From an uncultured Eubacteriales bacterium (GTDB taxonomy: Bacteria > Actinomycetota > Coriobacteriia > Anaerosomatales > PHET01), in the NCBI GenBank assembly GCA_964500985.1, contig CAZCRB010000002.1:36-64035 (forward strand): 64,000 nucleotides of DNA. The letters run 5' to 3'. Position 1 is the stretch's first letter. The number at the start of each line of letters is the position of its first letter. This document shows positions 4,275 through 56,192 of the stretch, piece after piece. The notes beneath the pieces were generated by a model, which was not told the DNA's origin, ran no database searches, and worked only from the letters and a program-made list of their open reading frames with translations. The position numbers and the translations under genes are program-made.

Positions 4275-6446
4275 CTAGTTGAGCAGGCCCTTCTTCGCGA
4301 GGTTCACGTGGCAGTTCGCACAGAACGTCGGATCGTGGCACTCGAAGCACGGCTGAGCGCCGTCCTTCTTCACGATGTTCGGGTGGTAGCGCAGCCACGG
4401 CTTGTTGGCAACGGAACCCTTGTGGTGGCACGAGTCGCAGAATGCGGTGTCGTGACAGTTCGCGCACTGGGCCTTGTTGAACTGCTTCTTCGCGAAGCCG
4501 TCCTTGTGCGGGAACTTCTGGGGGTTGCCGTCGTCGATCTGGTGCGACATGTCGAGCTTGTGGCAGCCCTTGCAGAACGCGGAGTTCGGCAGCTGGGCCA
4601 CTTCGCCGGCGTGGCAGTAGGTGCAGACTTCGCCGTCGGACTTGTAGAGCTGCGTGTGTGCCGCAGGCTTCTTGTAGTCGCGAACGAAGTTCTTCGCCTT
4701 GTGCGACGCGGGTACGACCTTGCGCTTCGTGTGGCACGTCACGCAGTCGGTCTTCTTGTGGCACTTCTCGACACACCCGGCGGCGCCGTTGGCATTCACC
4801 GAACCGCCGTGGACCTGAATCCACGGAGTGGTGAACGACGAGCCGACGTGGTGGCAGTTGCTGCACAGCTCCTTCCACGTGTGGCAGTTCTCGCACGTGG
4901 CCTTGGTCTTGCGGCCGCTCACGTGGTTCGTCTTGAACTCAGCGGGGTGCGGCATCTGAAGCTTGTGGCAGCCGGCACAGAAGGGCGCGTTGGGGCCGCC
5001 ATCGCCGTGACAGATCTCGCACGACTCGATGGACTCTTCCGCCGAGAGAGCGTGCTTCGCGGACGGCTGGGCAGGCGTCTTGCCGTATACCGTCACCGTC
5101 GGGGTGGACGGCTTCGTCCAGTACTTCTGCTTGTGAGAGCCGGGAACCACCTTGCGGCTCGTGTGGCAGTCGACGCAGAACTTCTTGTCGTGGCACTTCG
5201 TGCACGACTCGATACCGGACTTGGCGACAGCCTGCGGGTGCTGCTGCGCGGTCCACGGCGACGCGGGATCGAACTCCCACTTCACGGCGGAGCCGTGATG
5301 GCAGTCGTCACAGAAGTGCGTCTTCTCGTTGGCACCGTGACACATCACGCACTTGGCCGGCTGCTGCTTCGAGATGGCCGGGTGACCCGCAGGATCCTCG
5401 GGGCTCTTGGGCTCCTTGAACGCCTCAGGGTGCGGCATCTCCATGCCGTGGCAATCGGTGCAGAACGTGCGCTTGTGGCACGTCTCGCAGTAGAAGATCG
5501 TCTCGACCTTGGGAAGCTTCTCGCCGACGCTCTCGGTGTCGCTCGCCCCGGCGGCCTTCTCCTCTTCGAGCACCTTGGCCACCGCGACCTGCGGAACCGG
5601 CGCAGCGGTACCCTCTGAAGTGGTGCCACCCTCGCGCTCGGCGGCGGACTCGGCCTCGCTGGTCTCGCCCTCGCCCTCGGCACTCAGGGACTCAGCCTTG
5701 GCCTTGGTGGCCTCGGCCTTGTACTCCTTGGCCATCTCACCGTGCGTGGCCGGAGCGAACTCAGAGGTGTTGTGGCTGGCCGGAACCAGATTGAAGCTGG
5801 CGGGGTGGCACGCGGTGCACGCACCCGGGGCCGCCGAGCCCTCTTCCTGGCCATGGCAGCGGAAGCACGCGGTCATCTTCATGAAGTCGGCGTGCTTGCG
5901 GTTGGGCTCACCGGTCTTGGGATCGGTGAGCGTCAAGTCGAAGTTCTCGACGTGCGCGACACGGTTGTGACACACCGGGCACGCCGCGTTGACCTCCGCG
6001 TGCGGCTTGTGGTCGATGATGATGCCCGCGCTCGGGGTCACCGAGCGGGTGTCCAGGTTGTGACACTGCGTGCACTGCTTGGTCTTCATCGTCAGTGACA
6101 CTTCGGATTCAGCGTTGAGCGGGAGCTCGAAGTTATCGGTGATGGTCAGATAGAGCTCGCCCAGTGCCTCGGCTTTGTGCAGGATGAAGATCACCGGATT
6201 GGCATTGACCGGCATGTGGCACGCCATGCAGTTGATCTTGTTGTGCGACGACGCCTGGTATGCCGTGATGGTGTCGTCTTGGACTTTGTGGCAGCCATTA
6301 GCACAGAACCAGTAGGTGGATGTCACCCCCAGCGCCACGATCATGACCGCGGCCAGCACCAGGACGCCGACACCCGTCCAGATGATGTAGCGCGGTCGGC
6401 GTACCGGGTCCTTGAACCCGGCCAGGGAGATCTTGGGCATACGCAT
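4275..6446 (-). CDS. Membrane-anchored NapC/NirT-type multiheme cytochrome c (~24 hemes)
   Basis: N-terminal TM followed by a NapC-like segment (STYWFCANGCH..YQASSH..CMACH). 22 CxxCH plus 2 CxxxCH motifs. Confidence 0.9.
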   Translation of the reverse strand: MRMPKISLAGFKDPVRRPRYIIWTGVGVLVLAAVMIVALGVTSTYWFCANGCHKVQDDTITAYQASSHNKINCMACHMPVNANPVIFILHKAEALGELYLTITDNFELPLNAESEVSLTMKTKQCTQCHNLDTRSVTPSAGIIIDHKPHAEVNAACPVCHNRVAHVENFDLTLTDPKTGEPNRKHADFMKMTACFRCHGQEEGSAAPGACTACHPASFNLVPASHNTSEFAPATHGEMAKEYKAEATKAKAESLSAEGEGETSEAESAAEREGGTTSEGTAAPVPQVAVAKVLEEEKAAGASDTESVGEKLPKVETIFYCETCHKRTFCTDCHGMEMPHPEAFKEPKSPEDPAGHPAISKQQPAKCVMCHGANEKTHFCDDCHHGSAVKWEFDPASPWTAQQHPQAVAKSGIESCTKCHDKKFCVDCHTSRKVVPGSHKQKYWTKPSTPTVTVYGKTPAQPSAKHALSAEESIESCEICHGDGGPNAPFCAGCHKLQMPHPAEFKTNHVSGRKTKATCENCHTWKELCSNCHHVGSSFTTPWIQVHGGSVNANGAAGCVEKCHKKTDCVTCHTKRKVVPASHKAKNFVRDYKKPAAHTQLYKSDGEVCTYCHAGEVAQLPNSAFCKGCHKLDMSHQIDDGNPQKFPHKDGFAKKQFNKAQCANCHDTAFCDSCHHKGSVANKPWLRYHPNIVKKDGAQPCFECHDPTFCANCHVNLAKKGLLN

Positions 6447-6644: not shown

Positions 6645-7817
6645 CTAGCGGACGAGCAGCGTGTCCGCGAGCCGGTTGAGTTCGCTGATCGCCGACTGGA
6701 TCTGGCGTGAGCCCTCCGCGGCCTGCGTGGAGACCTGCGCCATCTCGCGCATGGAGATGACGACCTGGTCCGAGGCGGTCCGCTGCTGCTGGGTCGCGAT
6801 GGAGATCTGCTTGGCGGAGTCGGTGGTCTGCTCGACTTGGGAGACGATCTTGTCCAGCGAGTCGGCGGTACGGCGGGCAAGCATCTTGCCCTCCTCGACC
6901 TTCTTCTGCGCGCGCTCGGTCGACATGACCAGCGAACTGGCGCTGGACTGGATCTCGCGGACCACGCGGCCGATCTCGGAGGTGGACTCCGTCACCGAGT
7001 CGGCGAGCTTGCGGATCTCCTCGGCCACGACCGCGAAGCCCTTGCCCGCCTCACCGGCGCGCGCGGCCTCGATGGCCGCGTTGAGCGCGAGGATCTTGGT
7101 CTGCTCGGCGATGTCGTCGATGATGACGAGCACACGCCCGATCTCCTGGCTGCGCTCACCGAGCTGCAGGATCCGGTCGGACGCGATCTGCGTGGTCTCG
7201 CGAATCTCGTCGATGCCGCTGGCGGTGTCGGCCACCGCCTGCATGCCCTCCTCCGCAGACGCGAGCGTGCGCTCGGCGATGGCGGCGACGGACTGCGAGT
7301 TCTCTGCGATCTGCTTGGAAGTCTGCGCGAGCTCCTCGACCGTGGCGGAGGTCTCGGTGACCGCAGCGGCCTGCTGGGCGGCGCCACTGGCCTGCTGCTC
7401 CGTGGCAGCGAGAACCTCGCTCGTCAGCGCCCGCACGTCGTTGTTGACGGCCTTGGCCTGACCGAGCATCCCGGTGACCTCGCCAAAGAGCCGGATCACC
7501 TCCTGCTGCATCGCATCGCTGTCGCCGTCCATGTCGACGCGTACGCTGAACCGCTCAGTCGCGACCTCGAGAATGCTTCTGAACATCGATTCGCTCACGG
7601 AGGCGGCCACCATGGCACATACGACGCCGAGTGAGACTCCCGCGACCAGGCACAGCACCCAGAATGCGAGCCATGCGGACGGGCTCTTGGGCTCCACGAA
7701 GAACCCGACGGCCAGCGGGAACAGAATGCCGATGCCGAGACCCGCAGCTCCCATGTAGATGATGAGCTTCCTGCGCGTCGTCCCCATAGCGCCCTTTTTG
7801 GCCACGCCGTCCTCCAC
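6645..7817 (-). CDS. Methyl-accepting chemotaxis protein (2 TM, no obvious sensor domain)
   Basis: [37 protein letters not shown] signalling hairpin. Start uncertain (7817, 7805 or 7787). Confidence 0.93.
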
Positions 7818-7892: not shown

Positions 7893-7922
7893 TTGCCTGA
7901 AACATACCCCAAGGGGTATACT
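7893..7922 (+). promoter_or_regulatory. Sigma70-like promoter with overlapping CsoR/RcnR-family-type operator
   Basis: TTGCCT (7893) N18 TATACT (7917). Palindrome ATACCCC-AA-GGGGTAT at 7904-7919 lies in the spacer and overlaps the -10. Confidence 0.7.
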
Positions 7923-7970: not shown

Positions 7971-8174
7971 ATGACCAGTGTGCGCATCGAGAACAGTGTT
8001 TGCGACCGCTCCCCCGGGTGCCCCGCTCGGCGCGTCTGCCCCAAGGGTGCTATCGTCCCGGTCGAGGGTGGAACCTACCCGGGAGCCAACGGGTACACCA
8101 TCATCGACGAGAAATGCTCCGGCTGTGGCGTCTGCGCACGGGTGTGCGCCGGCGGAGCCGTGCGGCTGAGCTGA
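7971..8174 (+). CDS. Small 4Fe-4S ferredoxin-like protein
   Basis: CDRSPGCPARRVCP and CSGCGVCARVC motifs, 67 aa. Confidence 0.85.
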   Translation: MTSVRIENSVCDRSPGCPARRVCPKGAIVPVEGGTYPGANGYTIIDEKCSGCGVCARVCAGGAVRLS

Positions 8175-8183
8175 GGAGGATCC

Positions 8184-8528
8184 ATGAGTGACCCCATCAT
8201 CGTCGAGGTCTTCGACGTTCCCGCGACCACCGACTGCTTCTCCGGCGGATGAGGACCGTCCTGGTCTCCGGAGGAGATCACGGCAATCGTCCGCGCTGAG
8301 ATCGAGCGCCGCTACGGCGACGACGCACAGGTCCTCTACCACAACGTGGAACAGGACGAGACGCGCTCCACGCACGACAAGCTCATCACCGAGATCGAAG
8401 AGCGCGGGCTGCTCTATCCGGTGACCGTCGTCGACGGCGTGCCCGTCTACGACGGCGCGGTCAGCTACCCGGCGATCATGCGCGCGGTCAACAACAAGCT
8501 GCTGGAGCGCGAGCAGGCCCCCTCGTAG
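8184..8528 (+). CDS. Putative selenoprotein with thioredoxin-like fold (DUF1462/YuzD-like), Sec23
   Basis: GAGGAGG RBS and ATG 8184; in-frame TGA at 8250-8252 within DCFSGG-U-G; SECIS-like hairpin 8262-8280; the frame continues into ORF 8346..8528. Confidence 0.8.
8256..8283 (+). other. Bacterial SECIS-like hairpin
   Basis: TGGTCTCC-GGA-GGAGATCA stem with a G-first loop 17 nt after the UGA. Confidence 0.7.
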
Positions 8529-8545: not shown

Positions 8546-9691
8546 ATGAGCGAAGTCAGCATCGCGCGCTGCGCGGACTACCAGCTGGATCACATCGAGA
8601 GCGCACTCGACGCCGCCCTCTCCCCGCTCGGGGGGATGGCGGCGTTCGTGTCTCCCGGGGACCGCGTGTTCCTCAAGGTCAACCTGCTCTCGAAGGCATC
8701 GCCCGAGCGGGCGGTGACGACGCACCCCGAAGTCGTCCGGGCGGTCATACGCGCCGTTCGACGTGCCGGAGGGGTCCCGCGCGTCGGGGACAGCCCCGGA
8801 GGGCCCAACACCCCGGGCCAGTGGCGGCGGCTGTGCGAGGAGACCGGCATCGGCGCGGTGTGCGCCGAGGAGGACGCCGAGCTCGTGCTACTCGACGACG
8901 AGTGCACGCGCGTGGCCACGCCGTCGGGCACCCTCTACGGCGCGTTCACGGTCGGCAAGGCCGTGGTCGACGCCGACGTGCTGATCACGCTCCCCAAGTT
9001 CAAGACCCACGGCTTCATGATGTTCACCGGGGCGGTCAAGAACCTGTTCGGGTGCATCCCCGGACTCGAGAAGGCCCAGTTCCACCTCAAGGTCCCCGAC
9101 CGCAACGACTTCGGTTCGATGCTCGTGGATCTCATGCTCGCGGTGTCACCGTCGCTCGCGATCATGGACGCGATCGTCGGCATGGAGGGTGAAGGCCCGG
9201 CAGGCGGCACCCCGCGCGCGGTGGGCGCCCTCATCGCCTCTGCCGACAGCGCTTCGCTCGACGTCGTCGCGAGCGCCATGGCCGGCCTCTCGCCGATGGA
9301 GGTCTACACGAACAAGGCCGCGGCAGCGCGAGGTCTGTGCCCCGAACGCGCCGAGGACGTCGACGTGATCGGCGCCGACTGGCGCTCGCTGTCTCCGGAC
9401 GGCTTCGCGCTCCCCGCGCGCGACCTTTCCGCCATGATGCCGGCGTGGCTCGGCCGTCGCTTGGCGGGATGGACCACCGCGCGGCCGGTACTGGCGCGGC
9501 AGCAGGAGTGCACTCGCTGCGGGAAGTGTGCCGAGACGTGCCCGGTCGACGCGATCACCATCACCGACAAGGGACCGGTATTCGATCGGGATCTGTGCAT
9601 CAGGTGCTACTGCTGCCAGGAACTGTGCCCGCCGCAGGTCATCGGACTGACCGAGCCGCCGCTGGCGAAGTGGATCGGCCGGCGGCGCTGA
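8546..9691 (+). CDS. DUF362 domain protein with C-terminal 2x[4Fe-4S]
   Basis: VFLKVNLL, TTHPEVV, LPKFKTH, GAVKNLFG and DAIVGMEGEGP motifs; CTRCGKCAETCP and CIRCYCCQELCP. Confidence 0.9.
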   Translation: MSEVSIARCADYQLDHIESALDAALSPLGGMAAFVSPGDRVFLKVNLLSKASPERAVTTHPEVVRAVIRAVRRAGGVPRVGDSPGGPNTPGQWRRLCEETGIGAVCAEEDAELVLLDDECTRVATPSGTLYGAFTVGKAVVDADVLITLPKFKTHGFMMFTGAVKNLFGCIPGLEKAQFHLKVPDRNDFGSMLVDLMLAVSPSLAIMDAIVGMEGEGPAGGTPRAVGALIASADSASLDVVASAMAGLSPMEVYTNKAAAARGLCPERAEDVDVIGADWRSLSPDGFALPARDLSAMMPAWLGRRLAGWTTARPVLARQQECTRCGKCAETCPVDAITITDKGPVFDRDLCIRCYCCQELCPPQVIGLTEPPLAKWIGRRR

Positions 9692-19227: not shown

Positions 19228-19746
19228 CTACAGCTGCTTCATGCCGAACTGGTAGCTGCGCACCACGACCAGCCCCGTGTCGAGGACGAACTCGACCGTT
19301 CGGGCATGCGCCTCACCTGTATCTTCGGCCACAAGCGGGATCGACATGAGCGCAAGTTGCCGCCTGACCTCGGCGATGTTGCGTTCGCCTATGCCCGCCG
19401 CCTGCGCATCGCCGTGGAACATCGCGGCGCCTCCGACGATCTTGGCCTGCAGCCGACGCCGCACGGAGCCGGCCGCGGCGAGGCGCTCCACGAGCTCCGG
19501 TACCGCCCAGTCGGCGAACCGCGCGCTGCGGCCGTCGACGCTGTCAGACGAGGGGCACGGCAGCATCACGTGCGCGAGTCCGCCGCGGCGCGCGAACGCG
19601 TCGTAGAGCGCGACCCCCACGCACGAGCCGAGAGCGGGCGTCATCAGACGCTCGGGGGCCTCGCCCACGACGATCTCGCCGATGCCCACCTCGATGAGTT
19701 CGATGTCGGTCGAGAAGATGCTGGAGCTGTCGACCTCTTCAGGCAC
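19228..19746 (-). CDS. cheD: Chemoreceptor glutamine deamidase CheD
   Basis: LGSCVGVALYD..GGLAHVMLP..AKIVGGAAMF..IGERN..EDTG. Confidence 0.93.
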   Translation of the reverse strand: MPEEVDSSSIFSTDIELIEVGIGEIVVGEAPERLMTPALGSCVGVALYDAFARRGGLAHVMLPCPSSDSVDGRSARFADWAVPELVERLAAAGSVRRRLQAKIVGGAAMFHGDAQAAGIGERNIAEVRRQLALMSIPLVAEDTGEAHARTVEFVLDTGLVVVRSYQFGMKQL

Positions 19747-19749
19747 CGG

Positions 19750-20361
19750 TCACGCCACCCCGAGACGGCCGAGGATGACCTCGAGGCTGTCGGGGTCGGG
19801 CACGAAGAACAGCGCGGCCTCGACGATCGACCCCTCGTCGATGAAGGAGGTCCGCACGAGCACCGCCTCGTCACCGCCCATCTCGACCTCCGAGACGACG
19901 GCCTCCAGCAGCGCCCCGGCCATGTCGAAAGACAGCGACGGCGCGGAGGGGAGCACGTCGAGGTCGGCCATGCGCGCGATCGCCGCCAAGTATGCGGAGA
20001 TGAGGATCGAGGCGGTGTGCCTGAGCAGCGCCTCCTCCTCGTGGCCGAGCGACTGCGCGGTGCCCACCGGGCGACCGTGCAGCAGGTCGGTCAGCGCCAA
20101 CGCACCGTGTCGATCGGTCATGAACAGCACGCCACCCGAGATGTCACCGAGCAGACGAGAGTAGACGGCGCCAACCAGTCGCTCGGGCCCGCCGAACACG
20201 TAGGGCACACGAGAGAACTCGAGCACTTCGATGCGGGGCACCTCGAGCGCGATCGGCCTGTCCACCAACTGCGACAGCGCGGTGGCGGCGTGGCCCGCGC
20301 CGATCCCGCCGACCTCGCGCAACGCGTCGAGCTGAAGCGCGCTCAGGGCATCGAGCCTCAT
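19750..20361 (-). CDS. cheC: CheY-P phosphatase CheC
   Basis: DALREVGGIGAGHAATALSQL; ATGA overlap with the cheA stop. Confidence 0.9.
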   Translation of the reverse strand: MRLDALSALQLDALREVGGIGAGHAATALSQLVDRPIALEVPRIEVLEFSRVPYVFGGPERLVGAVYSRLLGDISGGVLFMTDRHGALALTDLLHGRPVGTAQSLGHEEEALLRHTASILISAYLAAIARMADLDVLPSAPSLSFDMAGALLEAVVSEVEMGGDEAVLVRTSFIDEGSIVEAALFFVPDPDSLEVILGRLGVA

Positions 20362-22349
20362 ACGATCCACTCCTCGGAAGAGAAGATGGTGCGCGGGTCC
20401 AGGATCAGCATCACGCGGCCGTCCCCAAGGATCGTGGCGCCGCTGAAGCCGCGCGTATCGCGCAGGAGATTGGAGAGCGGCTTGACGACGATCTCGCTGC
20501 GTCCGAGCAGCGCGTCGACGTGCAGGGACTGGATCTCGCCCCCGGACTCGATCAACACGATGCTCGAGCGCGGGTCGGGCAGGGCGTGCGGATCGCTCCC
20601 GAACAACAACGCATCAAGCCGCCTGAGCGGCACGACGGCCCCATCGCGCAGAATCAGCACCAGCGCGCCGTCGACGGTGTCGATCACCGCCTCGGACGCG
20701 AGGAACACCTCGTCGACCGCGGACAGCGGCAGCGCGAACGTCTGGCCGCAGGACTCGACGAGGAGTGCCTGGACGATGGCCAGCGTGAGTGGGAGGCGCA
20801 AGATGAAGTCGGTTCCCTGCCCGAGTCGTGACCGGATCTGGAGGGTGCCGCCGAGGTGCTCGATCTTGCCCTTCACGACATCCATCCCGACGCCACGACC
20901 GGACACCTTCGTGGTGACCTCCGCCGTCGAGAACCCGGGGACGCACGTGAACAACAGGATGTCGCCGTCGTCGTAGTCGGGCCGGTCCCCCGCCTCGACC
21001 AGACCGGTCTTGACGGCTTTGGCCCACACCTTGTCGATATCGATGCCGCGCCCGTCGTCGCTCACGACGATGGCCACGTGATCGCGTTCGCGATTCGCGG
21101 ACAGCAAGATGCGCCCTGCGGGAGGCTTGCCGTGGGCCGCGCGATCATCGGCGGGCTCGATGCCGTGATCGATACTGTTGCGCAGGAGGTGCACGAGCGG
21201 ATCACCGATCTCGTCGAGTACCGTCCTGTCGAGCTCGATGTCGAGCCCGCGCATCTCGAACTCGACCTGTTTGCCCAGATCGAGGGCGAGGTCCCTGACC
21301 ATGCGGGGGAACCGGTTGAAGATGTTGCCGACCGGCACCATGCGGGTCTGCATGACCTCGTACTGCAGGTCCGTCGATATCCGGTGAAGATCGTCGACCG
21401 TCTCGGACAGCTGGGGGTCGGAGCGCTCGTCTGCGATGCGGTTGAGCCTTGAGCGCAGGATGACCAACTCGCCGACCAGGTCGACGAGCGTGTCGAGATG
21501 GCCGATGGCCACGCGCACCGTCTGCGTCTGGGAAAGCTTGGGCAGGTCACGCGTGCGCCGCGCCGGCAGGCGGCGCTGCGAGGAGTCCTCATCTCCCGCT
21601 TCTTGGTCGGAGGCGCTGCGCTTGACGATCGCGACCTCGACGCTTTCGACTTCGCTGACGTGTGCGGCCGCCTCCCGGACAGCCTCGACCGACGAGGCCG
21701 TGTCCAAGACCACCTCGAAGTCGCGACCGAACTGCTCGTCCTCGATCTCCTGTGCGGATGGCCGGGTCTCCACGACCCGCCCGAGGAAGGCCAGCCTCTT
21801 GAGAACCATGTAGGCGCGCACGGACTTCAGGACCGACGCCTCCTCTATGGTCACCTTGAGGAGCATGCGGTCCGACCCGTCGCTGAGCTCGGGCTCGTCC
21901 TCGGTGGTCGCATCGGACGGCACCGACAGCGGTGCGTCGACCGCAGGATCCGCGACGGGCGACGTGCCGGCGTCCGCGCCGAACGACTCCAGCGCGCCGA
22001 TCATCTCCGACGGGTCGATGTCGTTTCGCGCGTTGGACTCGTCGTCGATCAGGTCACGCACGAGGTCGACGGCGACGAGCATCAGCTCCACGGCCTCGCG
22101 CGACGCGGCGAGTTCGCCACGCCGGACGCGATCCATGAACGTCTCCATCTTGTGCGTCAGATCGGCGCTGCGCTCGTAGCCCATCGCCGCCGACATCCCC
22201 TTGAGGGAGTGCGCGCCGCGAAACACCGCTTCGACTGGGGCGGCGTCTCCCGGCTCCGACTCGAGCGCGAGCAGCGCGTCGGTGATCTGCTGAAGGTAAT
22301 CGCCGCTCTCGGCGAGGAAGACGTCGCGGTAGGCGTCCATCTCTCCCAT
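20358..22349 (-). CDS. cheA: Chemotaxis histidine kinase CheA
   Basis: FRGAHSLKGMS Hpt, P2 domain, LVHLLRNSIDHGIE, GRGVGMDVV, CheW-like C-terminus. Confidence 0.96.
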   Translation of the reverse strand: MGEMDAYRDVFLAESGDYLQQITDALLALESEPGDAAPVEAVFRGAHSLKGMSAAMGYERSADLTHKMETFMDRVRRGELAASREAVELMLVAVDLVRDLIDDESNARNDIDPSEMIGALESFGADAGTSPVADPAVDAPLSVPSDATTEDEPELSDGSDRMLLKVTIEEASVLKSVRAYMVLKRLAFLGRVVETRPSAQEIEDEQFGRDFEVVLDTASSVEAVREAAAHVSEVESVEVAIVKRSASDQEAGDEDSSQRRLPARRTRDLPKLSQTQTVRVAIGHLDTLVDLVGELVILRSRLNRIADERSDPQLSETVDDLHRISTDLQYEVMQTRMVPVGNIFNRFPRMVRDLALDLGKQVEFEMRGLDIELDRTVLDEIGDPLVHLLRNSIDHGIEPADDRAAHGKPPAGRILLSANRERDHVAIVVSDDGRGIDIDKVWAKAVKTGLVEAGDRPDYDDGDILLFTCVPGFSTAEVTTKVSGRGVGMDVVKGKIEHLGGTLQIRSRLGQGTDFILRLPLTLAIVQALLVESCGQTFALPLSAVDEVFLASEAVIDTVDGALVLILRDGAVVPLRRLDALLFGSDPHALPDPRSSIVLIESGGEIQSLHVDALLGRSEIVVKPLSNLLRDTRGFSGATILGDGRVMLILDPRTIFSSEEWIV

Positions 22350-23431
22350 CAGGATCCGCCTCCCGACTCGGTCTTTGCGCGAACGGAGCGCCGTATCTCG
22401 GCGGCGACGAGTCCGACCGAGACAACACGCGAAGCCGCGCCGAGTCGCATCGCCGTGCCCGGCATGCCCCACACCACACTGGTCTTCTCGTCCTGGACCA
22501 CCGTGTCCCCGCCGGCCAGCCTGATCGCCTGTGCCCCACGGGCCCCGTCGCAACCCATGCCGGTCAACACGACGCCCACCGATGAGGCCGCGCACGTCTC
22601 GGCGACGCTCTCGAACAGCAGGTCGGCCGCCGGCTTGACGCCGTGCATCGAGGGCTCGTCGCTGAACGCGATCTTGAGCGCGGTGCCGTGACGCTCCACG
22701 CGCATGTGCCGGCCGTGGGGCGCGATGTAGGCGTGCCCGGCACGGACCACCTCTCCGGCCGTCGCCTCGACGACCCGGATCTCGGATTCCGCGTCGATGC
22801 GCTTGGCCAACGATGCCGAAAAGCCCGCTGGCAGGTGCTGAACGACCAGGTACGCCGCCGACATGGAAGCGGGCAGTCCCGCGAACACCCGCTCGAGCGC
22901 AGGCGGGCCGCCCGTCGAGGCGGCGATGGCCACGATCACCGCAGGGGGCCCCTCCGGCGCCGCATCCGCCGTCAGTGACGGAAGCGCGTCGCGCCCGGTC
23001 GGACCCTGCTCTTGCATCGAGGCGAGCCGCTCGGGCGTGATGCGGTTGGCGGTCTTGATCTTCTTGAGCAACACGTCGGTGAGCTCGGTGATCGACCCGG
23101 CCATGCCGGCATGGGGCTTGGGAAGGAAGTCGACCGCGCCCAGCGCCAACGCGCGATACGTCGTGTCGGGGTCGTCGAGCGAGGAGAGCATCACGACACG
23201 CGCGTGAGAATGCTTCCGAATGTGTGGCAACGCCTCGAGCCCGCTGAGTTCGGGCATCTCGATGTCGAGCGTGATGACGTCGGGCTCCAGGTCCCGGGCC
23301 TTCTCGATCGCCTCAACGCCGGTCTTGCCGGTGCCCACGACCATGATGCGCGGGTCCATCGACAGGGCGCGCGTCAGCATCTGCCGTATCAGGGCAGAGT
23401 CGTCGACCACAAGCACCCGGATCTCGCGCAC
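22349..23431 (-). CDS. cheB: Chemotaxis methylesterase CheB (REC + esterase)
   Basis: VLVVDDS, DVITLDIEMP, AASTGGP, QHLP and VVLTGMGCDGA motifs. Confidence 0.95.
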   Translation of the reverse strand: MREIRVLVVDDSALIRQMLTRALSMDPRIMVVGTGKTGVEAIEKARDLEPDVITLDIEMPELSGLEALPHIRKHSHARVVMLSSLDDPDTTYRALALGAVDFLPKPHAGMAGSITELTDVLLKKIKTANRITPERLASMQEQGPTGRDALPSLTADAAPEGPPAVIVAIAASTGGPPALERVFAGLPASMSAAYLVVQHLPAGFSASLAKRIDAESEIRVVEATAGEVVRAGHAYIAPHGRHMRVERHGTALKIAFSDEPSMHGVKPAADLLFESVAETCAASSVGVVLTGMGCDGARGAQAIRLAGGDTVVQDEKTSVVWGMPGTAMRLGAASRVVSVGLVAAEIRRSVRAKTESGGGS

Positions 23432-23442
23432 GCGGCCCTCCG

Positions 23443-23814
23443 TCACCCGGCGTTGGCCTGGAGGCACTTCTTCACGGTCTCGAGCACCTTCGTCGGCTGG
23501 AACGGCTTGACGAGGAAGTCGAGTGCACCCGCCTCGAGCGCCTCGACGATCATCTTCTGCTGGCCCATGGCGCTCACCATGAGAACCCGCGCCTCGGTGT
23601 CCGCGTCGCGGATGGCGCGCAGGGCGGTGATGCCGTCCATCTCGGGCATGGTTATGTCCATGGTGACCAGGTCGGGCTGCAGCTCCGAGTACTTCTCGAC
23701 GGCATCCCGGCCGTTGACGGCCTCGTGGATGACGTAGCCCTCACGGGCGAGAATGTCGCGGATCATCATGCGCATGAAGGCTGCGTCGTCGACGACGAGG
23801 ATCGTCTTAGACAT
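23443..23814 (-). CDS. cheY: Response regulator CheY
   Basis: ILVVDDAAFMRMMIRDIL..MDITMPEMDG..FLVKPF. Confidence 0.95.
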   Translation of the reverse strand: MSKTILVVDDAAFMRMMIRDILAREGYVIHEAVNGRDAVEKYSELQPDLVTMDITMPEMDGITALRAIRDADTEARVLMVSAMGQQKMIVEALEAGALDFLVKPFQPTKVLETVKKCLQANAG

Positions 23815-24298
23815 CCAAGGCCCCTTCCTCGCTGGCATCGGTCGATAGTGCGGGGGCGTACTCGCGGCGCGGGACCGCCTCGTCAAGGTCGAGAAGTATC
23901 ACGAGGTCACCATCGCGCTCCACGACGCCGGTGAACGCGCGCGCCGTCTCGCCGGAGAGCACACCCTCTGGGACAGGCCGAACGGAGTCGATCGGGAACT
24001 CGGCGACCTCGCTCGCGGAGTCGACCGCGAGCCCCACCGGCCCCGCCTGCCCCTCGGCGACGACGATCCGTGACATGGGGCCGGGCTCGAACGCGGCGCG
24101 CGTGAAGCGCTTGCGCAGGTCGACGATCGGGATGACGCGGCCCCTCAGATTCACCACGCCAAGGACCGCCTCCGGGGAGCGCGGCACGGGCGTGGCCTCC
24201 TCGTAGCGGATGATTCCGCTGACGGTCGCCACGGGAAGGCCGTACTCTTCATCTCCGAGCCGGAACAGGACGTAGCTCGCCGAGACGCGGTCGCTCAC
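23807..24298 (-). CDS. cheW: Coupling protein CheW
   Basis: FRLGDEEYGL..GVVNLRGRVIPIVDL. Confidence 0.95.
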   Translation of the reverse strand: MSDRVSASYVLFRLGDEEYGLPVATVSGIIRYEEATPVPRSPEAVLGVVNLRGRVIPIVDLRKRFTRAAFEPGPMSRIVVAEGQAGPVGLAVDSASEVAEFPIDSVRPVPEGVLSGETARAFTGVVERDGDLVILLDLDEAVPRREYAPALSTDASEEGALDV

Positions 24299-24307
24299 GA
24301 CACCCTC

Positions 24308-25624
24308 CTACTCGACCTTGAATCGGTGAACGGTGTCGTCGAGTCGCTGCGCCATGTCCGCCAGGTCCTGAGCCGACGCGGTGATCTCCTGCATGCACGC
24401 CGTCTGCTCTTCGGCCGCGGCGGCCGTCTCCTCGGCCGAGGCCGCGTTCTGCTCGACCACGGCTGCGATCTCGTGCATCGCGCGGTCCACTTCGAAGGTG
24501 CGCTGGGCCTGCTGGCCCATCGAGTTCGCGATCGTCGCGGCGAGTGCCGAGGTGCGCGAGACCGCGTCGGTGATGGCCCGCAACGACTCGTTGGTGCGGC
24601 CCACGACCTCGCTTCCGACCTCAACCTCACGCGTTCCGATCTCCATGTAGCGCACGGCCTTGGCGGTCTCGGCCTGGACCTCCTTGATGAGCTCGCCGAT
24701 CTGCTCGGCGGCACGTCCCGAGCCCTCGGCGAGCTTGCGGACCTCTTCAGCGACGACCGAGAACCCGCGTCCCGACTCGCCGGCGCGCGCGGCCTCGATC
24801 GCGGCGTTGAGGGACAGCAGGTTCGTCTGGTCGGCGATCTGGGTGATCACGTCGACGATCCCACCGATCTGCTCGCTGCGCTTCCCGAGCACCTCGACCG
24901 ACTCGGCGAGCGTCTCGATGGCCTGCTGGACCTCGCCGATCTTGACGATGGCCTGCTCGGTGGCCTCCTCGCCCCTGCGTGCGAGCGAGCCAGCCTCCTC
25001 GGTGGTCTTGACCGCCTCGCTGGCCTGCACCGCCACTTGCTCGGTCGTCGCCGCGATCAGCGCCATCGAGCGGCTCGTGTCGTCTACCTTGCGCGACTGC
25101 AGCTCGGCTCCATGCGCGATCTGTTGGACCGAAGAGGAAATCTCGATCGTTGAGGAATTGATCTCCTCGGACGAAGCGCTCAGCTCGGACGCGGCCGCCG
25201 AGACGGACTCGGCGGACCGACGCACCGACGACGCGATGTCGGAGAGGGACGAGATAAGGGCGTTGCATTCGGTCGCCAGCGCGCCGATCTCGTCGTTGTG
25301 GTGAACCTCGGCGCGGACCATGAGGTCGCCCTGCCCGGCCTCGACCATGACGCCGCCGAGGTCACGCAGCGGCCGCAGGATCCGCTTCTTGAACTGCACG
25401 CGCCACAGCCACGTGCCGACCGGCGCCATGAGGAGCATGGCTACAGCCCCGAACGCGATGACCGGCAACATCTCGGACCACGAAAGCTTCAGGTACCACT
25501 CAGCGAAGAACGCCGTGACGACCAGACCGAACATCACGGCGGGTCCGATCGCAACCCACGTGAGCACCGTGAAGATGAACGACAAGCCACCTCGCATTGA
25601 GCTGTGACGATGCTCCTGAGCCAT
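24308..25624 (-). CDS. Methyl-accepting chemotaxis protein (2 TM + HAMP)
   Basis: HAMP (RPLRDL..DEIGALA) and [21 protein letters not shown] hairpin. Confidence 0.95.
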
Positions 25625-25666
25625 CGAACGACGCTCCTTCCTTGCGTTTCGCTCGACCGGACGGCG

Positions 25667-26512
25667 CTACGGCCGCACGGGCTTTCGGTATATCCGTTCC
25701 TTGCCGTCGATCGCCTCGAATGCGATCGCCGCTTCCGGCGACAGCTTCTCGCTGCGCCCCAACACCAAGTAGCCACCGCGGTTCAGTGACCGGTAGAAGT
25801 TGTCAAGAACGCGCGCCTGCTGCGCGCGATCGAAGTAGATGAACACGTTGCGGCACATCACGAGGTCGATCACGCGCAGAGGGGCCTCGTCGAACAGGCT
25901 CCTCTGCTGGAAGCGCACGAGCTTCCTGACCTCGGGAACGATCTCGAATGTGCCGGGTCCCGCCATCCGAGTGAATCGTACCTGATAACCGGGTGCGATG
26001 CGCTTGAGCATGGCCGAGTCGTACACGCCCCGTTCGGCCTTGGCGAGCGCCTCCGGGTCGAGGTCGGTCGCCGTGACCGAGATGAGGAAGCGTGGGGCCT
26101 CCGGGCCGAGGGCATCGAGCAGCGCCATGGCGATCGAGTACGGCTCCTCGCCGGTCGCACAGCCGGCCGACCATATCCTGATGGTGCGGTTGCGCCCGGT
26201 GCGCTTGGCCTCGATCAGCGGCGGCAGCACGTTGCGCTTGATCTGGTCCCAGACGACCTTGTCCCTGAAGAACTCGGTCACGTTGATGGTGAGCGTGTCG
26301 AGCAGCTGTGCGTACTCGCCACTGTCCTGATCCAGCCGATCGGCGTACTGCCGGTACGAATGGAGCTCCAGCACGCGCATGCGAGCGGCGATTCGGCGCT
26401 CAAGGTAGGCGCGCCGATAGAGGCCGAGATCGATGCCGCGCGCGTCGTTGACCCGCGAGATCAGCTTATCGATGTTGCCGCGATACAGCTGCGAGCCAGA
26501 CGCGTCCGGCAA
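25667..26512 (-). CDS. cheR: Chemotaxis methyltransferase CheR
   Basis: TINVTEFFRD, IWSAGCATGEEPYS and CRNVFIYF motifs; TTG start after a purine-rich RBS. Confidence 0.95.
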   Translation of the reverse strand: MPDASGSQLYRGNIDKLISRVNDARGIDLGLYRRAYLERRIAARMRVLELHSYRQYADRLDQDSGEYAQLLDTLTINVTEFFRDKVVWDQIKRNVLPPLIEAKRTGRNRTIRIWSAGCATGEEPYSIAMALLDALGPEAPRFLISVTATDLDPEALAKAERGVYDSAMLKRIAPGYQVRFTRMAGPGTFEIVPEVRKLVRFQQRSLFDEAPLRVIDLVMCRNVFIYFDRAQQARVLDNFYRSLNRGGYLVLGRSEKLSPEAAIAFEAIDGKERIYRKPVRP

Positions 26513-26624
26513 TCCCTCTCCCCCTGTCAGAGCCAGCACGCCGACCCGAGCGGGTGACGAGCGCACTTCAGTCTATATAATAGTACGCAGAGCGTCGTTG
26601 CGAGCACCCCTCGGAGGTACGCAA

Positions 26625-33100: not shown

Positions 33101-33153
33101 GCGAGGGCTGAACCCCCGCGGCCTAGAGCGTATGTCCGAGTGCGTGGCGTCAC
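30130..33153 (-). CDS. Secreted multiheme cytochrome c with central FG-GAP/VCBS beta-propeller (~14 hemes)
   Basis: Signal peptide; 8 CxxCH, then repeats (GDIDGDGVKELLV, ADLDGDSAKREIAV, GDADGDGDKDLLV), then 5 CxxCH and 1 CxxxCH. Confidence 0.88.
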   Translation of the reverse strand: MTPRTRTYALGRGGSALAAFAVFAVACAIAFPSAATAGTVAPPHVSTSADTDTCAMCHRGHTSFNDATAFKPTSDSPSRNALLVGSGGLGDTGLCFSCHGVDALGSGSDVESAFSTASGHSLEPSASAFGPSKQCSTCHDTHGAARNASGTPYAALLRTATATGTLVFSGDAVCGTCHGVRPGSAFPGLAVWQQTPHSRIPTAAGGTAIVCSACHDPHGSPVAPSLRTRLTTPSASVPATVTANDRTQCFGCHGASLGTWSGAATYPGSSHASSTATVTVAGEWVDAPMSRRVGECQACHAVMGATDASGSVVPDMLQAQGRALCDSCHDSSGPASTDFAALRYAPTTPGLEVIGAWGSAASAQYGRVQVFARIATAAAEPVGPREVAPVSAVGAAAAGDIDGDGVKELLVADAAAAQLALVERDAEAGGIGSRLLSVPGGSVVRLLAVADVEADPSGLPEVIVVTADDVLRVLRLSGGSLDAVGSLPLSRVPSAIAAGDIAAGVQSELVLTFEATDELSIYSAVTGTPVESGTYPTNDQPVAVAVADLDGDSAKREIAVASVSSAVPSETVSFFDGSGARYADGGGPLPAGTVPTAILAADILDGVTPAGTSGAEVALAYADSNGASGVRVIEQAAGGGFGSAVNHSTGTRTNAASLAFGDADGDGDKDLLVALAGAFTRTSTAVEPRIAVYTPNGSGTDVTPAFALTAGGAEVGGTAATVLVADLGAVGPSRHPVGAAVASHVSTESSPASRHVECADCHDSHLAKSGAADTAALPGELIGARGVAVENSTATTLTLTGPVRAAAEYEACFFCHSKWDPAAPARTRIASQVNTLGASYHPIEGSLDTSTNATGSTMTTAAAVGGTIRCGSCHGTSSASGPSGPHRSPDAPLLQRPYRGATSADSGMLCYRCHKESVYGTGADDGVAGDRSGFYASGSPGTPLHARHASFGVACEACHASHGVPQQEHLLRYWAGSGPFTWTPSGTGGSCTADCHTLPLVAKSYSR

Positions 33154-38236: not shown

Positions 38237-38260
38237 CTAACGTTTCCCTCCTTCCATCAC

Positions 38261-39685: not shown

Positions 39686-39944
39686 GCTGTCCCTAACCTC
39701 CTTCACACACTCTGAAGTGCTGGTTTTCCGTTGCCGAGTGGAGCGGATGAAGAAAGGCCACCTCCTTTACGCGAGCCCCATCTCGGGTTCGGTCGGAGGC
39801 GGCCTTGTCATCAGGACAGCGAAGACACCGAACGAGGGACACTGCGCCCCGTGTGGGGAATGGTGTCCTGGTCTCGTTCGAGGGCCCGATTGCCGGCTCC
39901 GACCCGTCGTACGTGATATTCGGTTTTTCAAGGCGTAACACCGT

Positions 39945-47401: not shown

Positions 47402-50400
47402 CTACATCTTCTCGAGTCGGCAGAGACAGGCCTTGAACTCAGGGATCGTCGTGTTCGCGTCCATCGCGTCGATGGTCAGGTCGTTCGCCCGCGAACCGGT
47501 CGACAGACCCTGCTCGCCCCAGTGCCACGGAATTGCCACGACACCCTGGGCCACACGCTGGTTGGACTGGATTCCCACGCCGACACGGGCGACGAAGCCC
47601 TTGCCGTAGTTGTCGAGCGCGTTGACGACGCCCTGGGCGTTGGTGTTGCCGTCGGTGCGGGCGGTGACGACCTTGACGTAGTCGCCATCCGCGATGCCGA
47701 GCAGGCGTGCGTCGACGTTGTTGAGCTCGATCCACGGCTCCGGCTCGGCCTCGACGTTCCACCAGTTGTTACGGGTGATGGGGCCGCCCTGGAAGTGCTC
47801 GACGCACCGGATGGTGGTCAGCACCAGCGGGTACTTGCTCGGCTTACCGATGGTCGTGCCGTCGTAGATCAGGTTCAGAGGACCGGCAGCCTGGATAGCG
47901 GTGCTATCGGCGCTGTTGTAGCCCCAGACCAGATCGCCGAGGTCATCGGCGCGCGGAGTCTCGTACGGCTCGGTGTGCGCCGGGAAGCGACCGGGCTCGA
48001 CGTGGATCGCCGGAGCGGTCCCGTTTGCGAGATACGGCTTGTCGGCGAGCACGTGCGAAGTCGGCGCAAGGATCGTGCGGTACCAACGCGAGTAGTTGTA
48101 GATCGTCGTGCCGGTGGGAGCCCACGCGCTCTGGCCCTTCGGGGAGAAGAGGCGCACGCACGAGTCCGGACCCATGAAGAAGTCCGACTGGTCACCGACG
48201 ACTTCGGCGTTGTTGTACAGCACGCGGCGGTTGACGAGCCACGAGTAGCCCCACTTGTGGGAAGCGAGGGTGCCGTACGGATCCTGGCGGTCACGGCTCT
48301 TGGAGCGGTTCGAGACTTCCCAGGTGCTGTAGGCGCCGTAGAGGCGACCCATGCCCTTGGCGGTGTCGTAGCCCTCCGTGTAGATCCAGATCGTACCGCC
48401 GGCAGAGACGCTGCTCGTGTACTCGCGGAACACCATCTCAGCGACGAACTCGGAGCCCTGGACCTTGGTTGAGGTCGCGGGGTTGAGCGCGGCGTAGGTG
48501 GTGCCGGCGCCGGTCCACGCACCAGGCGTGGCGTAGTCGATCGTCAGGCCGGTCGTGTCGCTGCCTGCCGCGGTGAACGCAACCGCGCCACCGGGAGTCC
48601 AACCGTACGGCGTGCCGTAGAGGTTGGCGTAGGCGGCCTTGGAAGCCCAGCCCTGGACGGACTCGATGTGAGCGAAGCAGTCAGCGTCGTTGAGCGCCTT
48701 GGCGAACCGGAGCAAGAGCTCGTTGTCGTCCTTGCTGTTGCCCTTGGGGTCAACGGCCTTGTAGCGCCACTGCAGGGTACGACCGGAGTTCGTGGCCGCG
48801 CCCGCCTTCTCGACGTGGGCCGCCGACGGGATCAGGTACGTGACACCCGTGCACTTGCGGGACACCGCAGCGGTCTCGTTCATGAACATGTCGACGCAGA
48901 CGAGCGTGTCGAGGTTGTAGAGCCCCTCGCGGACCTTCGCCTGGTTCGGCTCGGTGACGGCGGGGTTCTGTCCCCACACGACGAGCGACTGGATGCGGGT
49001 CGCGTCGGTGTGCGTCATGTACCTGAACATCTTGATGTGGTTGAAGCCGTTGCCCTTGGGCCACAACGAGTACGCCTTGTCCACGATGGCGCGCCGTGCG
49101 GCGAGCGTGGTGGCGCTGGTCGCAGCGGAGTATCCGCCGAACCACTTGAGCGTCATGTTGTAGAACCCGCGCTGTTGCAGCTGCATGGCGCCCGTGTTGT
49201 AGGCGTCGTCGTAGCTGTTGTCCATCTTGGAACGCACGGTGCCGCTGAAGTCAGTGGTCCCGGTGGTTCCGGACAGAGGCAGGCCCCACAGCCCGTCCAT
49301 GTACTTGCCGAACGCCTTGTTGGTGTCCGTACCGTCCACGGCCGTGACCTGGGTGCCCGGGTTGCCCGAGTAGCCGGGGATGTTGCCGTAGAGCAGGCCC
49401 ATGTCCGTCGAACCCTGGACATTGTGGATGCCGCGCAGCGCGTTGATGCCGCCGCCGGCGCGTCCCGTGTTGCCCATCATCGACTGCAGGTTGGCCATTG
49501 CCTTGACGTTCTGCGCACCGTAGGTGTGCTGCGTCAGACCCATGGCGTACAGGATCGTCGTGGCGCGGTAGCCGGCCTGCGGTGCCTGGTCGGTATCGAC
49601 CGTGTAGGTGACGAGAACCTTGTCGCCTGCGTTGATGCCGCCCGCGACGGCGACGCGCTTGAGCGTGCCGAGCGAACGCGAGTTGGTACCGGCGACCACG
49701 GTGTAATGCGTACCGGCCGTGTAGGTGGTCAGACCATCAAGGCTCTTGACCGAGGCAACGGACAGGTTCCAGCCCCACATCGGCACCGCGTCAGGAACGC
49801 CGGCGGTGTCGGTCAGGCGCACCACGCGGTCGGTGAACGTGACGTTCGACGACACGGAGGAGCAGCGGCTGTTCTGGATGATCGCGTCACCGACGAGCGC
49901 GATGTCGGCGACCGTGCAGCCGCAGATGTCGGCAACGACGGTGTCACTGTAGGCGGCAAGGTGCTGCTTCATGCGCGAGAACACCGTGCCGGCGGCGTCA
50001 CACGCGGCGGCCTTCTTGGGGAAGTTCGAGATCAGCAGGTTGTTGGTCTCGGTGCCCAAGGGGGTTCCGCCGGTGGTGGTGACGGTACCGCGATCGTAGT
50101 CCGTGCCGTTGAGCATGAACCGCGCGTCGGTGTACTTGGAGCTGCCCGCCACGGTGGCGACCTGCGTGCTCGCGTGCGTTGCGTCGCCGTCCGTGAAGAA
50201 CGTGCCGTTGCCGCTCTGGTTCAGGTACGCCCAGTACTCGGTCTTCGTGGCGGCGGGGATCTCGGTGCCGTCAGCGAAGTACGTCGTCTGGTCGGTCCGC
50301 ATCTTCTCGATGATGTAGGCCATCACGCCGTTGGCCAACGCGATGTCGGTTCCGGGACGGATGCGGACGTAGTCATCGGCCTGCAGCGCGGTGCGCGTCT

Positions 50401-51283
50401 TGCGGGGGTCGATGACGATGAAGCGCGCAGGCTTCTTGTTGGCACGGTCACCCGAGAAGTACTGCTTGGGGAAGCGTGCGCGGTTGACGTGCGCCATGCA
50501 CGCCGGGTGGTTCTCAGTGGGGTTGGCACCCCACGCGATAACGAGCGAAGCATTGGCGATGTCCGCCCAATGGTTCGTCATCGCGCCTCGTCCGAATGCG
50601 GCGGCCAGACCGGCCACCGTGGACGAGTGTCATATACGGGCCTGATGCTCGACGTTGCTGGTACCGAAGTTCGCGATGATCTTGCGGTACAGGTAGTTCG
50701 ACTCGTTGTTCATGTGCGAACTACCGAGGAACGCAACGGTCTTGCTGTTGTACTTCATCGAGCCCGGCACCCAGTTGGTGGCGTCGGCGTCACGCGCCGT
50801 CTTGAGGCGAGTGGCGATATCGGCCAGCGCGGTGTCGATCGGCACGGCGGACCAAGGGCCATCGCCGGTGCGCTTGTACGCGATCGGGTTGCTGGTGCCG
50901 TCGGCCGCGAACACGTTGTCGACCGGGTGCGTGCCCGTGAACGCGCCGATACGGCGCGGGTTGTTCACGAGCTGGAGCGCCCCTGCGCCCTTGGCACACA
51001 GGCCGCCCGAGTTCATGGGCGACTCGAAGTCACCGTAGACGTCTACAACGACCGTCGGGTCGGATTTCTTGACGACGACGCGCTGCCCGCAGCTTGCGGA
51101 GCAGTACGGGCACGTCGTCGTGGTGATCTGGTAGTCAGCTGAGTTCTCGTACGCGGACGCCTTTTCAGGATCGTACGCGAACTCGAGGCCGCAACCGACC
51201 ACCGCGGTGGCAGCTGCGGCGGTTTTGATGAAGTCACGCCTGGTGACCCCACCAACCGGCTGCCCGGTGTCCCTAGTTGCCAT
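47402..51283 (-). CDS. fdhA: Selenocysteine-containing Mo/W formate dehydrogenase alpha subunit (Tat-exported, 1293 aa, Sec218)
   Basis: ORFs 50630..51283 and 47402..50617 are in frame across TGA 50632-50630 in EHQARI-U-HSSTVAGLAAAFGRGAMTNHW. Tat motif TRRDF; CPYC..C..LCAKG; ALRGIHNVQG; EFKACLCRLEK. Confidence 0.95.
50587..50627 (-). other. SECIS element of fdhA
   Basis: CTCGTCC-A-CGGTGGCC-GGTCT-GGCCGCCG-CATTC-GGACGAG directly after the UGA; GGUCU loop as in the fdhF-type SECIS. Confidence 0.88.
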
Positions 51284-51480: not shown

Positions 51481-51599
51481 GAAGAACACATATGCGGACG
51501 AGCCTCCCTTACCCTGGGTCGTAGCGCGACAACGAGCGGGCCATTGCCGGTGGCTTCCACTCAGGACTCCCCGTTTGCCGGCGAGAAGCCCGTCGCGCC

Positions 51600-51698
51600 G
51601 ATTCTCTTTCCAAGGCGGGAGGCGCCACCGTTTCCAGTGACACCCTATCGGCCCGAGTACCGTGGCAAGACGCGGTAGGTCGCGGGGGCTCGAGAATC
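51600..51698 (-). ncRNA. Molybdenum/tungsten cofactor (Moco/Tuco) riboswitch, P3-less type
   Basis: P1 GATTCTC/GAGAATC; AGGG, P4 with GAAA loop (GTCACTG-GAAA-CGGTGGC), GCCTCCC, TGGAAAG; located in the leader of a molybdopterin enzyme. Confidence 0.82.
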
Positions 51699-56167: not shown

Positions 56168-56192
56168 GAAGTCTGCCGCAGCTCCTTTGTCG

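Follow-up and report, generated by a model that had tools for sequence, protein, structure and literature searches.

Is the UGA triplet that interrupts the plus-strand reading frame at positions 8184-8528 of the DNA analysed here a stop codon, or is it decoded as selenocysteine (Sec)? The DNA, referred to below as the window, is a stretch of 64,000 nt of contig CAZCRB010000002.1 (GenBank assembly GCA_964500985.1) from an uncultured Eubacteriales bacterium, which the GTDB places in the Anaerosomatales (Actinomycetota; Coriobacteriia). An inspection of the letters and their open reading frames (ORFs), which we call the sequence-only reading, had proposed that a small selenoprotein is hidden at this site by the in-frame UGA. 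Here, we examined the proposal by comparing the coding sequence, the RNA hairpin behind the UGA, the protein family and the gene neighbourhood across related genomes. Taken together, the results make it very likely that 8184-8528 encodes a 114-residue selenoprotein with a thioredoxin fold of the DUF1462/YuzD type, probably with a ferredoxin-linked redox role.

A conserved UGA inside a continuous coding sequence

The frame opens with an ATG (8184-8186), runs for 22 codons to the TGA and for 91 more to a TAG stop (8526-8528), and its translation is unbroken across the TGA (MSDPIIVEVFDVPATTDCFSGG*GPSWSPEE...), so that reading through it yields a product of 114 residues (MSDPIIVEVFDVPATTDCFSGG-U-GPSWSPEEITAIV...EREQAPS). 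The Shine-Dalgarno (SD) sequence GAGGAGG (8173-8179) begins within the TGA stop codon (8172-8174) that closes the ferredoxin gene upstream, an overlap which suggests that translation of the two genes is coupled. The mechanically produced ORF list has a single entry in this frame, a 60-aa ORF starting with GTG (8346-8528). The ribosome-binding site, the ATG and the continuous frame are thus where the sequence-only reading had put them, and it was equally right that the ORF track gives the C-terminal 60 residues only.

When the window protein with U replaced by C was used as a query, a protein search returned 370 matches, nearly all of them 72-86 aa long and confined to the part beyond the UGA; a single full-length protein was among them, with tryptophan (W) at the UGA column. 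A scan of genomes with DNA patterns, taking one genome per species, retrieved 80 loci (L001-L080), all of them in metagenome-assembled genomes of Coriobacteriia/Actinomycetota, and these loci together with the window form the set of 81 sequences used below. The TGA column is identical in all 81, within the motif C-[FWY]-S-G-G-TGA-G-P-S-W-S-P-E-E-I-T. Upstream of the TGA, the first and second codon positions are constrained and the entropy of the third is far higher (n=81), as expected of coding sequence. Residues V-14, D-12, P-10, C-5, G-2 and G-1, numbered relative to the TGA, are conserved at 98-100%, with C-5, G-2 and G-1 alone being identical in every sequence, and an ATG or GTG lies 22-25 codons 5′ of the TGA, behind a GGAG-type SD, in about 74 of the 81 loci. 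The sequence-only reading had named homologues that begin after the TGA as evidence that would speak against it; instead, the 22-25 upstream codons are conserved as coding sequence and possess an SD and a start codon of their own. The Sec form is the sole form in the 81 sequences. Because the DNA patterns of the scan would miss a Cys form such as P0121 (see below), this exclusiveness holds for the retrieved subfamily alone.

More distant relatives came from exhaustive searching with P0001, a full-length homologue, as the query, which yielded 32 clusters. Seven full-length members carry Cys at the Sec column (P0121, P0128, P0137, P0141, P0143, P0150 and P0151), so that Cys homologues aligned to the TGA, the check suggested in the sequence-only reading, do exist, and all seven have Cys at precisely that column. 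P0121 (51% identity) has the motif ACCSSGCCGPAWS, P0137 has CDAVDCGP and P0143 has CGPGGCGP; P0141, P0150 and P0151 have Cx3C. Four further members were called with W at this position (P0127, P0132, P0134 and P0138), and in each the codon on the contig is TGA, not TGG, which identifies the W members as gene calls made under an alternative code. The W codon of P0001 itself (L094) is probably TGA as well, judging from the failure of its translation under table 11. The four W-called members represent distant Sec forms (L081, L082, L084 and L085, respectively) on contigs of 41-61% GC from other lineages, and they retain both the TGA and the hairpin described below. Throughout the homologues, the Sec column holds Cys and never a TGG-encoded Trp, and the invariant columns of the family alignment (A4) are C18, U/C23, P79 and G91.

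The hairpin behind the UGA and selenocysteine use in this organism

The bacterial Sec insertion sequence (SECIS) hairpin is the binding site of SelB·GTP·Sec-tRNASec. The sequence-only reading had noticed a hairpin with a G-first loop 17 nt after the TGA, and this structure is indeed present at 8262-8280 (UGGUCUC-CGGAG-GAGAUCA; alternatively, 8 bp closed by a GGA loop), with the loop starting 17 nt past the UGA and an energy of -9.3 kcal/mol when folded alone. Constraint on the hairpin is visible at synonymous sites. Across codons +4 to +9 (UGGUCUCCGGAGGAGAUC), the third-position entropy is close to 0 (n=81), with TGG in 81/81, TCT in 79/81, CCG in 77/81, GAG in 81/81, GAG in 81/81 and ATC in 79/81 sequences; at the flanking invariant residues G+1, P+2, S+3 and T+10 it amounts to 1.6-1.7 bits, with all synonymous codons in use. 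The zone frozen at synonymous sites coincides exactly with the hairpin.

We also examined pairing in 32 distinct sequences, including the four distant homologues, with the 3′ arm slid out of register as a control. The hairpin positions can pair in 98.2% of the cells, compared to 30-67% in the slid controls. Changes within the stem comprise one compensatory exchange of G-C for A-U, four one-sided changes that keep the pairing, and four unpaired cells. The hairpin of L084 (CAAUCUC-AGGAA-GAGAUUA) shows the G-C to A-U change, and that of L085 reads GGUCUUC-GGA-GGAGACC. The combination of a UGA and a SECIS-like element, whose conservation the sequence-only reading had proposed to verify, is therefore kept in the 80 species-level genomes and in the four distant homologues.

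The published model of the bacterial SECIS (bSECIS) comprises a loop of 3-9 nt, a stem of 4-16 bp and a G in the first two loop positions, together with an N1-G-G-N-N2 pattern, a distance of 16-37 nt from the UGA and an energy of -7.5 kcal/mol or lower (PMC13188914). The hairpin at 8262-8280 lies within these limits (stem of 7-8 bp, loop CGGAG or GGA, 17 nt, -9.3 kcal/mol). Rfam gave no SECIS match, either in the whole window at gathering thresholds or in 8150-8400 at E values up to 10, which says little either way since no SECIS-type family scored at all in the local Rfam scan.

Whether the organism uses Sec at all can be judged from a second gene in the window, fdhA, which encodes the formate dehydrogenase alpha subunit. 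The sequence-only reading had relied on this gene as proof of Sec use. Its frame also contains a TGA (...HQARI*HSSTVAG); the part after this TGA begins at position 196 of TIGR01553, and the UGA occupies the canonical Sec196 position. The hairpin that follows (CGGUGGCC-GGUCU-GGCCGCCG; -15.4 kcal/mol) has its loop 18 nt past the UGA, and the hairpin at 8262-8280 has the same geometry. We take the UGA at Sec196 as evidence for decoding of UGA as Sec in this organism. General reassignment of the codon does not account for it, because TGA terminates about half of the window's genes with high GC content at third codon positions (GC3), including the ferredoxin gene just upstream of 8184.

Several other genes of the window touch on selenium or on formate dehydrogenase. 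A molybdenum/tungsten cofactor (Moco/Wco) riboswitch (Rfam RF01055, 57.6 bits) lies at 51587-51707 (minus strand), about 300 nt upstream of fdhA; the genes at 46450-47388 and 45142-46446, which follow fdhA, encode an Fe-S subunit and a multihaem cytochrome, respectively. An SclA/TIGR01977-like cysteine desulfurase or selenocysteine lyase gene (59781-60962, minus strand) adjoins a DUF3343 'Se/S carrier' gene (59539-59784), and this region may constitute a selenium-handling module; next to the pair are the Moco biosynthesis genes MoCF_biosynth, MoaC, MoaA and MobB (60963-63900, minus strand). The large subunit of a [NiFe] hydrogenase, encoded together with the small subunit at 36080-39706 (minus strand), matches NiFeSe models best and was considered as a further selenoprotein, but it ends in DPCIACAVH, with Cys, and is therefore of the Cys type, in an organism that uses Sec. 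Other TGA-interrupted frames were looked for across the window in a crude scan, whose output was limited to antisense artefacts and the cheC/cheD junction and which failed to pick up the two true cases.

Fold, gene partners and rival interpretations

The resemblance to DUF1462/YuzD proteins that had been noticed in the C-terminal part is real. The protein scores 34.5 bits with Pfam DUF1462 (PF07315), for which the gathering score is 25; 26 of the 29 members of alignment A4 match this family as well, and the family profile finds the structure 1XG8 (Staphylococcus aureus SA0798, YuzD-like) in the PDB with an E value of 8.3e-9. An AlphaFold2 model built from P0001, with the UGA called as W, has a predicted local distance difference test score (pLDDT) of 75.7 and displays the thioredoxin-type order of strands and helices, and the C/U pair sits in the loop that joins strand 1 to helix 1. 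For this model, Foldseek places 1XG8 first (E 2.2e-4, template modelling scores 0.55/0.64), followed by thioredoxins and ArsD. Pro79 is probably the cis-proline of the fold, a position that is invariant even in the distant Cys homologues.

The CxxC motif after strand 1, a feature of DUF1462/YuzD proteins, is replaced here by C-x4-U: in the profile alignment to 1XG8, C18 and U23 lie over the CxxC with a two-residue gap (aClsggCG vs IC--ASC). Given this insertion, we regard the protein as belonging to a divergent DUF1462/YuzD branch rather than as a typical member. The sequence-only reading was correct in giving the motif as C-x4-U instead of CxxU, but went too far in calling it unusual for the redox motif, since the spacing is that of ArsD Cys13/Cys18 and equals the YuzD CxxC plus a two-residue insertion. 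An NCBIfam scan of the protein found no selenoprotein model and only a sub-threshold ArsD match.

The most constant companion of the gene is the ferredoxin gene, which immediately precedes it in the same orientation in 76-77 of the 80 loci and is again the neighbour of two Cys homologues, P0121 and P0137. Its product belongs to a small, clade-restricted family (47 clusters, mostly of 60-69 aa, with two longer ones of 86 and 99 aa), and no ferredoxin-DUF1462 domain fusion occurs among these clusters. Its second Cys motif is complete, and the first has three Cys only (C-D-R-S-P-G-C-P-x-R-R-x-C-P), from which it follows that one cluster should be [3Fe-4S], or [4Fe-4S] with a non-Cys or external ligand. 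A DUF362/Fe-S gene lies downstream in 32 of the 80 loci and beside P0121, and thus appears to be a variable third member of the operon; for DUF362 itself, the literature offers clan membership with LarA only. These counts come from tracing six of the window's own neighbouring genes through the 80 loci. Upstream of the ferredoxin gene, a consensus scan found one promoter-like site (0.2 expected), and this match, TTGCCT-18-TATACT, marks a possible operon promoter; a site scan of the plus strand found no terminator-like site between the genes. The coordinates are collected in Table 1.

Table 1. Positions of the features discussed in the text, within the 64,000-nt window
Feature	Position	Strand	Basis and remarks
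Predicted selenoprotein coding sequence	8184..8528	+	114 aa, M1...C18...U23...P79...S114, then TAG; translation, Pfam DUF1462, 80-locus conservation
Shine-Dalgarno sequence GAGGAGG	8173..8179	+	Read from sequence
Cys18 codon (TGC here)	8235..8237	+	Invariant partner of Sec23; TGC 68, TGT 13 in 81/81 sequences
In-frame TGA, proposed Sec23 (codon 23)	8250..8252	+	TGA in 81/81 sequences
bSECIS-like hairpin	8262..8280	+	5′ arm 8262-8268, loop CGGAG 8269-8273, 3′ arm 8274-8280
Pro79 codon, thioredoxin-fold cis-proline position	8418..8420	+	Invariant in alignment A4
Promoter-like site TTGCCT-18-TATACT	7893..7922	+	Upstream of ferredoxin gene; consensus scan
7-Cys ferredoxin-like gene, 68 aa	7968..8174	+	Pfam Fer4_7/Fer4; C-x5-C-x5-CP ... 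CxxCxxCxxxC[A/P]
DUF362 gene with C-terminal 2x[4Fe-4S]	8546..9691	+	Pfam DUF362 E 6.7e-59, Fer4; 18 nt downstream
fdhA, formate dehydrogenase alpha subunit	47402..51283	-	Sec-UGA 50630-50632, own SECIS hairpin

On this basis, we propose the following mechanism. Translation would start at the ATG at 8184, from the SD that overlaps the ferredoxin stop, and would end at the TAG at 8526-8528; on the way, the UGA at codon 23 would be decoded as Sec under the direction of the hairpin at 8262-8280, whose apical GG lies 17-18 nt downstream. The active-site pair would be Cys18-x4-Sec23, placed in the loop that leads from strand 1 into helix 1, opposite the invariant Pro79, and would cycle between the selenol/thiol and selenenylsulfide states. 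The protein might then serve as a low-potential redox carrier or reductase together with the co-transcribed, translationally coupled 7-Cys ferredoxin, and in a subset of the genomes the DUF362 Fe-S protein may be a further partner. The redox chemistry and the role of ferredoxin as the electron partner are suggested by the fold and the neighbouring genes.

The main functional rival holds that the selenoprotein is an ArsD-like soft metal or metalloid chaperone, in which C18 and U23 bind As(III), Sb(III) or similar ions and pass them to a partner. Several observations agree with such a role, which we nevertheless consider unlikely. The family profile finds ArsD 3KTB with an E value of 6.5e-3, the counterparts of C18 and U23 in that alignment are ArsD Cys13 and Cys18, the segment VFD.P...C..G.(C/U)G resembles the N-terminus of ArsD, and 13 of the 29 family members give weak matches to the ArsD Pfam model. 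Moreover, the Cys homologue P0143 (L087) resides in an arsR-arsD-arsA-X operon, X being the homologue itself, and the Sec homologue L081 is next to a gene for a CsoR/RcnR-type metal-sensing repressor. However, the hidden Markov model (HMM) scores of the window protein remain below the cut-offs (Pfam PF06953, 19.9 vs 27 bits; NCBIfam NF033727, 16.7 vs 90). The metalloid-binding triad of ArsD is Cys12-Cys13-Cys18, and the equivalent of Cys12 (position 17) is not conserved in our family, where it may be D, A, E, S, G, N or Q. A partial Pfam/NCBIfam scan of the window detected no ars gene, the flanks of the 80 loci not having been searched for ars. Furthermore, the conserved neighbour is the ferredoxin, the immediate neighbours are Fe-S proteins, and linkage to thioredoxin reductase is found for other distant homologues: P0141 (L090) forms a thioredoxin - X - thioredoxin-reductase-like operon, and P0150 is followed by a thioredoxin-reductase-like gene on a short contig where no upstream gene is visible. 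Different thiol-based systems thus appear to have taken up members of the wider family (ars in L087, thioredoxin in L090). The flanks of L081 (6-179 and 771-1028) comprise, besides the CsoR/RcnR-type repressor, a gene for an FmdB-type zinc-ribbon protein, and the FmdB family includes known Sec-containing members (PMC13188914).

A very improbable alternative concerns the decoding itself. If the UGA were an ordinary stop, the locus would specify a 22-residue peptide, with a second start inside the frame giving rise to the DUF1462 domain as a product of its own. In line with this, the products reported by gene callers and by NCBI annotation are 72-86 aa long and start past the TGA, labelled as truncated 'DUF1462 family protein' in GenBank, and TGA is a normal stop elsewhere in the genome. 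Nevertheless, the internal starts chosen by the callers vary among orthologues (MTAIVR, MERRYG, VRAEIE), and they sacrifice the protein-invariant GPSWSPEEIT, which has no preceding in-frame start or SD of its own, as well as the invariant Cys and the entire first strand. The Cys homologues, by contrast, are continuous across the UGA column, and if the locus held two separate genes, a stop kept at a single column in all 81 sequences and flanked by coding sequence under constraint would not be expected. Least credible of all is decoding of the UGA as Trp, Gly or Cys through code reassignment or near-cognate suppression: the W in some metagenome gene calls (P0001, P0127, P0132, P0134 and P0138) might seem to favour it, but these calls fail under table 11 and so point to alternative-code calls on short contigs, TGA serves as the stop codon in roughly half of the window's high-GC3 genes, the fdhA of the same organism has its UGA at a canonical Sec site, the homologous column is occupied by Cys and never by TGG Trp, and a conserved SECIS-type hairpin lies at the correct distance.

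Decoding of the UGA as Sec in a DUF1462-like redox protein therefore remains our preferred interpretation, even though a number of points weigh against it. Incorporation of selenium at residue 23 is a prediction made from nucleotide and protein comparisons. The energy of the hairpin does not differ significantly from that of shuffled sequences (z -1.3 to -1.7; segments of 42-71 nt), which is why we used conservation of synonymous sites as evidence instead; covariation is thin, with one compensatory pair, because the stem hardly varies, and in L054 and L079 a U-to-A change breaks one pair. The genes selA, selB, selC and selD were not found in the 64-kb window, which was partly scanned and whose only tRNA is tRNA-Pro, so that the Sec competence of the organism rests on the UGA of fdhA. 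The N-terminal part of the structural model is of moderate confidence only (pLDDT 57-75), owing to the shallow alignment. Finally, the functional role is deduced from the fold and the neighbours, and P0143 stands in an ars operon instead.

A more daring version of the redox proposal, which we rate as quite improbable, is that the selenoprotein and the 7-Cys ferredoxin form a dedicated two-protein redox machine, in which the first cluster of the ferredoxin, a site-differentiated Fe-S cluster with three Cys ligands only (C-x5-C-x5-CP), would react directly with the Sec23/Cys18 selenenylsulfide and break it in one-electron steps. Chemistry of this kind operates in ferredoxin:thioredoxin reductase and heterodisulfide reductase. 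If the machine existed, such chemistry would be split over two small, Sec-dependent proteins, and anaerobic Actinomycetota with many multihaem cytochromes would possess a Sec-obligate, ferredoxin-driven reductant.

The surroundings of the operon deserve a brief description. A gene for a methyl-accepting chemotaxis protein (MCP; 6645-7817, minus strand) is divergent from the ferredoxin-selenoprotein operon, an arrangement kept in 62 of the 80 loci, and a complete chemotaxis operon (CheD, CheC, CheA, CheB, CheY, CheW, MCP and CheR) occupies 19228-26566 (minus strand). Large multihaem c-type cytochromes are encoded on the minus strand at 4275-6446, 30130-33153, 34770-36062, 45142-46446 and 54551-58612, unusually many for an actinobacterial genome; some contain MtrC/MtrF-like domains, and the gene at 58491-59345 codes for a cytochrome b. 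This richness in multihaem cytochromes suggests electron transfer of an extracellular or periplasmic type.

Significance and comparison with known systems

The inventory of prokaryotic selenoproteins published in 2026 lists 119 families and subfamilies, none of which is PF07315, PF06953 or characterized by C-x4-U (PMC13188914, Table 1). The family is not mentioned in the deep-Sep paper, and the main text of BSepDB was checked for general terms only; full-text literature searches for DUF1462, YuzD or ArsD in combination with selenoprotein, and for Cx4U motifs, returned nothing relevant. What is new, then, is the selenoprotein family, the thioredoxin fold and bSECIS-directed decoding being already well known, and what is unusual about it is the C-x4-U spacing, the restriction to the Sec form among the 80 retrieved genomes and the dedicated ferredoxin partner.

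At present, the annotation of over 80 species-level genomes, like that of several hundred gene calls from metagenomes, shows a truncated fragment ('DUF1462 family protein' or 'YuzD') that is devoid of the active site. Re-annotation would bring a selenoprotein family to environmental Actinomycetota of the Coriobacteriia/Anaerosomatales type, a group of organisms that the 2026 selenoproteome review does not name. It would also provide a first functional handle on DUF1462/YuzD, in the form of the invariant C/U pair, the cis-Pro position and the neighbours from ferredoxin or thioredoxin systems. The SECIS is unusually clear in this case, in that it overlies the invariant W-S-P-E-E-I peptide and the synonymous-site signal alone defines the element. 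In addition, W-for-U gene calls on short contigs (the 'GGWGP' proteins) could be mined for unrecognised selenoproteins.

Among known systems, the closest is DUF1462/YuzD itself (PF07315; 1XG8; Bacillus subtilis YuzD, annotated as a 'putative disulfide oxidoreductase'), with which the selenoprotein shares its size, the thioredoxin fold, the YP(V/L) proline and the location of the redox pair after strand 1. It differs in having Sec for Cys, C-x4-U for CxxC and a dedicated 7-Cys ferredoxin, as well as in its origin from Coriobacteriia-type Actinomycetota rather than Bacillota, and its identity to 1XG8 is about 17%. ArsD (PF06953; 3KTB, 3KGK, 3MWH) likewise combines a thioredoxin fold with the lack of CxxC, and both proteins have the N-terminal (V/I)FDP..C..G.CG with the C-x4-C spacing of ArsD Cys13/Cys18; the selenoprotein departs from it by lacking Cys12, by carrying Sec in place of Cys18 and by HMM scores under the cut-offs. 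The catalogued selenoproteins with a thioredoxin fold (among them Trx, Grx, SelW-like, thioredoxin-like Sec.1/Sec.2 and Prx-like; PMC13188914) are also small, with Sec in the active-site loop, a resolving Cys, a bSECIS that directly follows the UGA, and existing Cys homologues. According to PMC12013277, Cys homologues are numerous in most families of bacterial selenoproteins, whereas the subfamily retrieved here shows the Sec form only, in 81 of 81 sequences.

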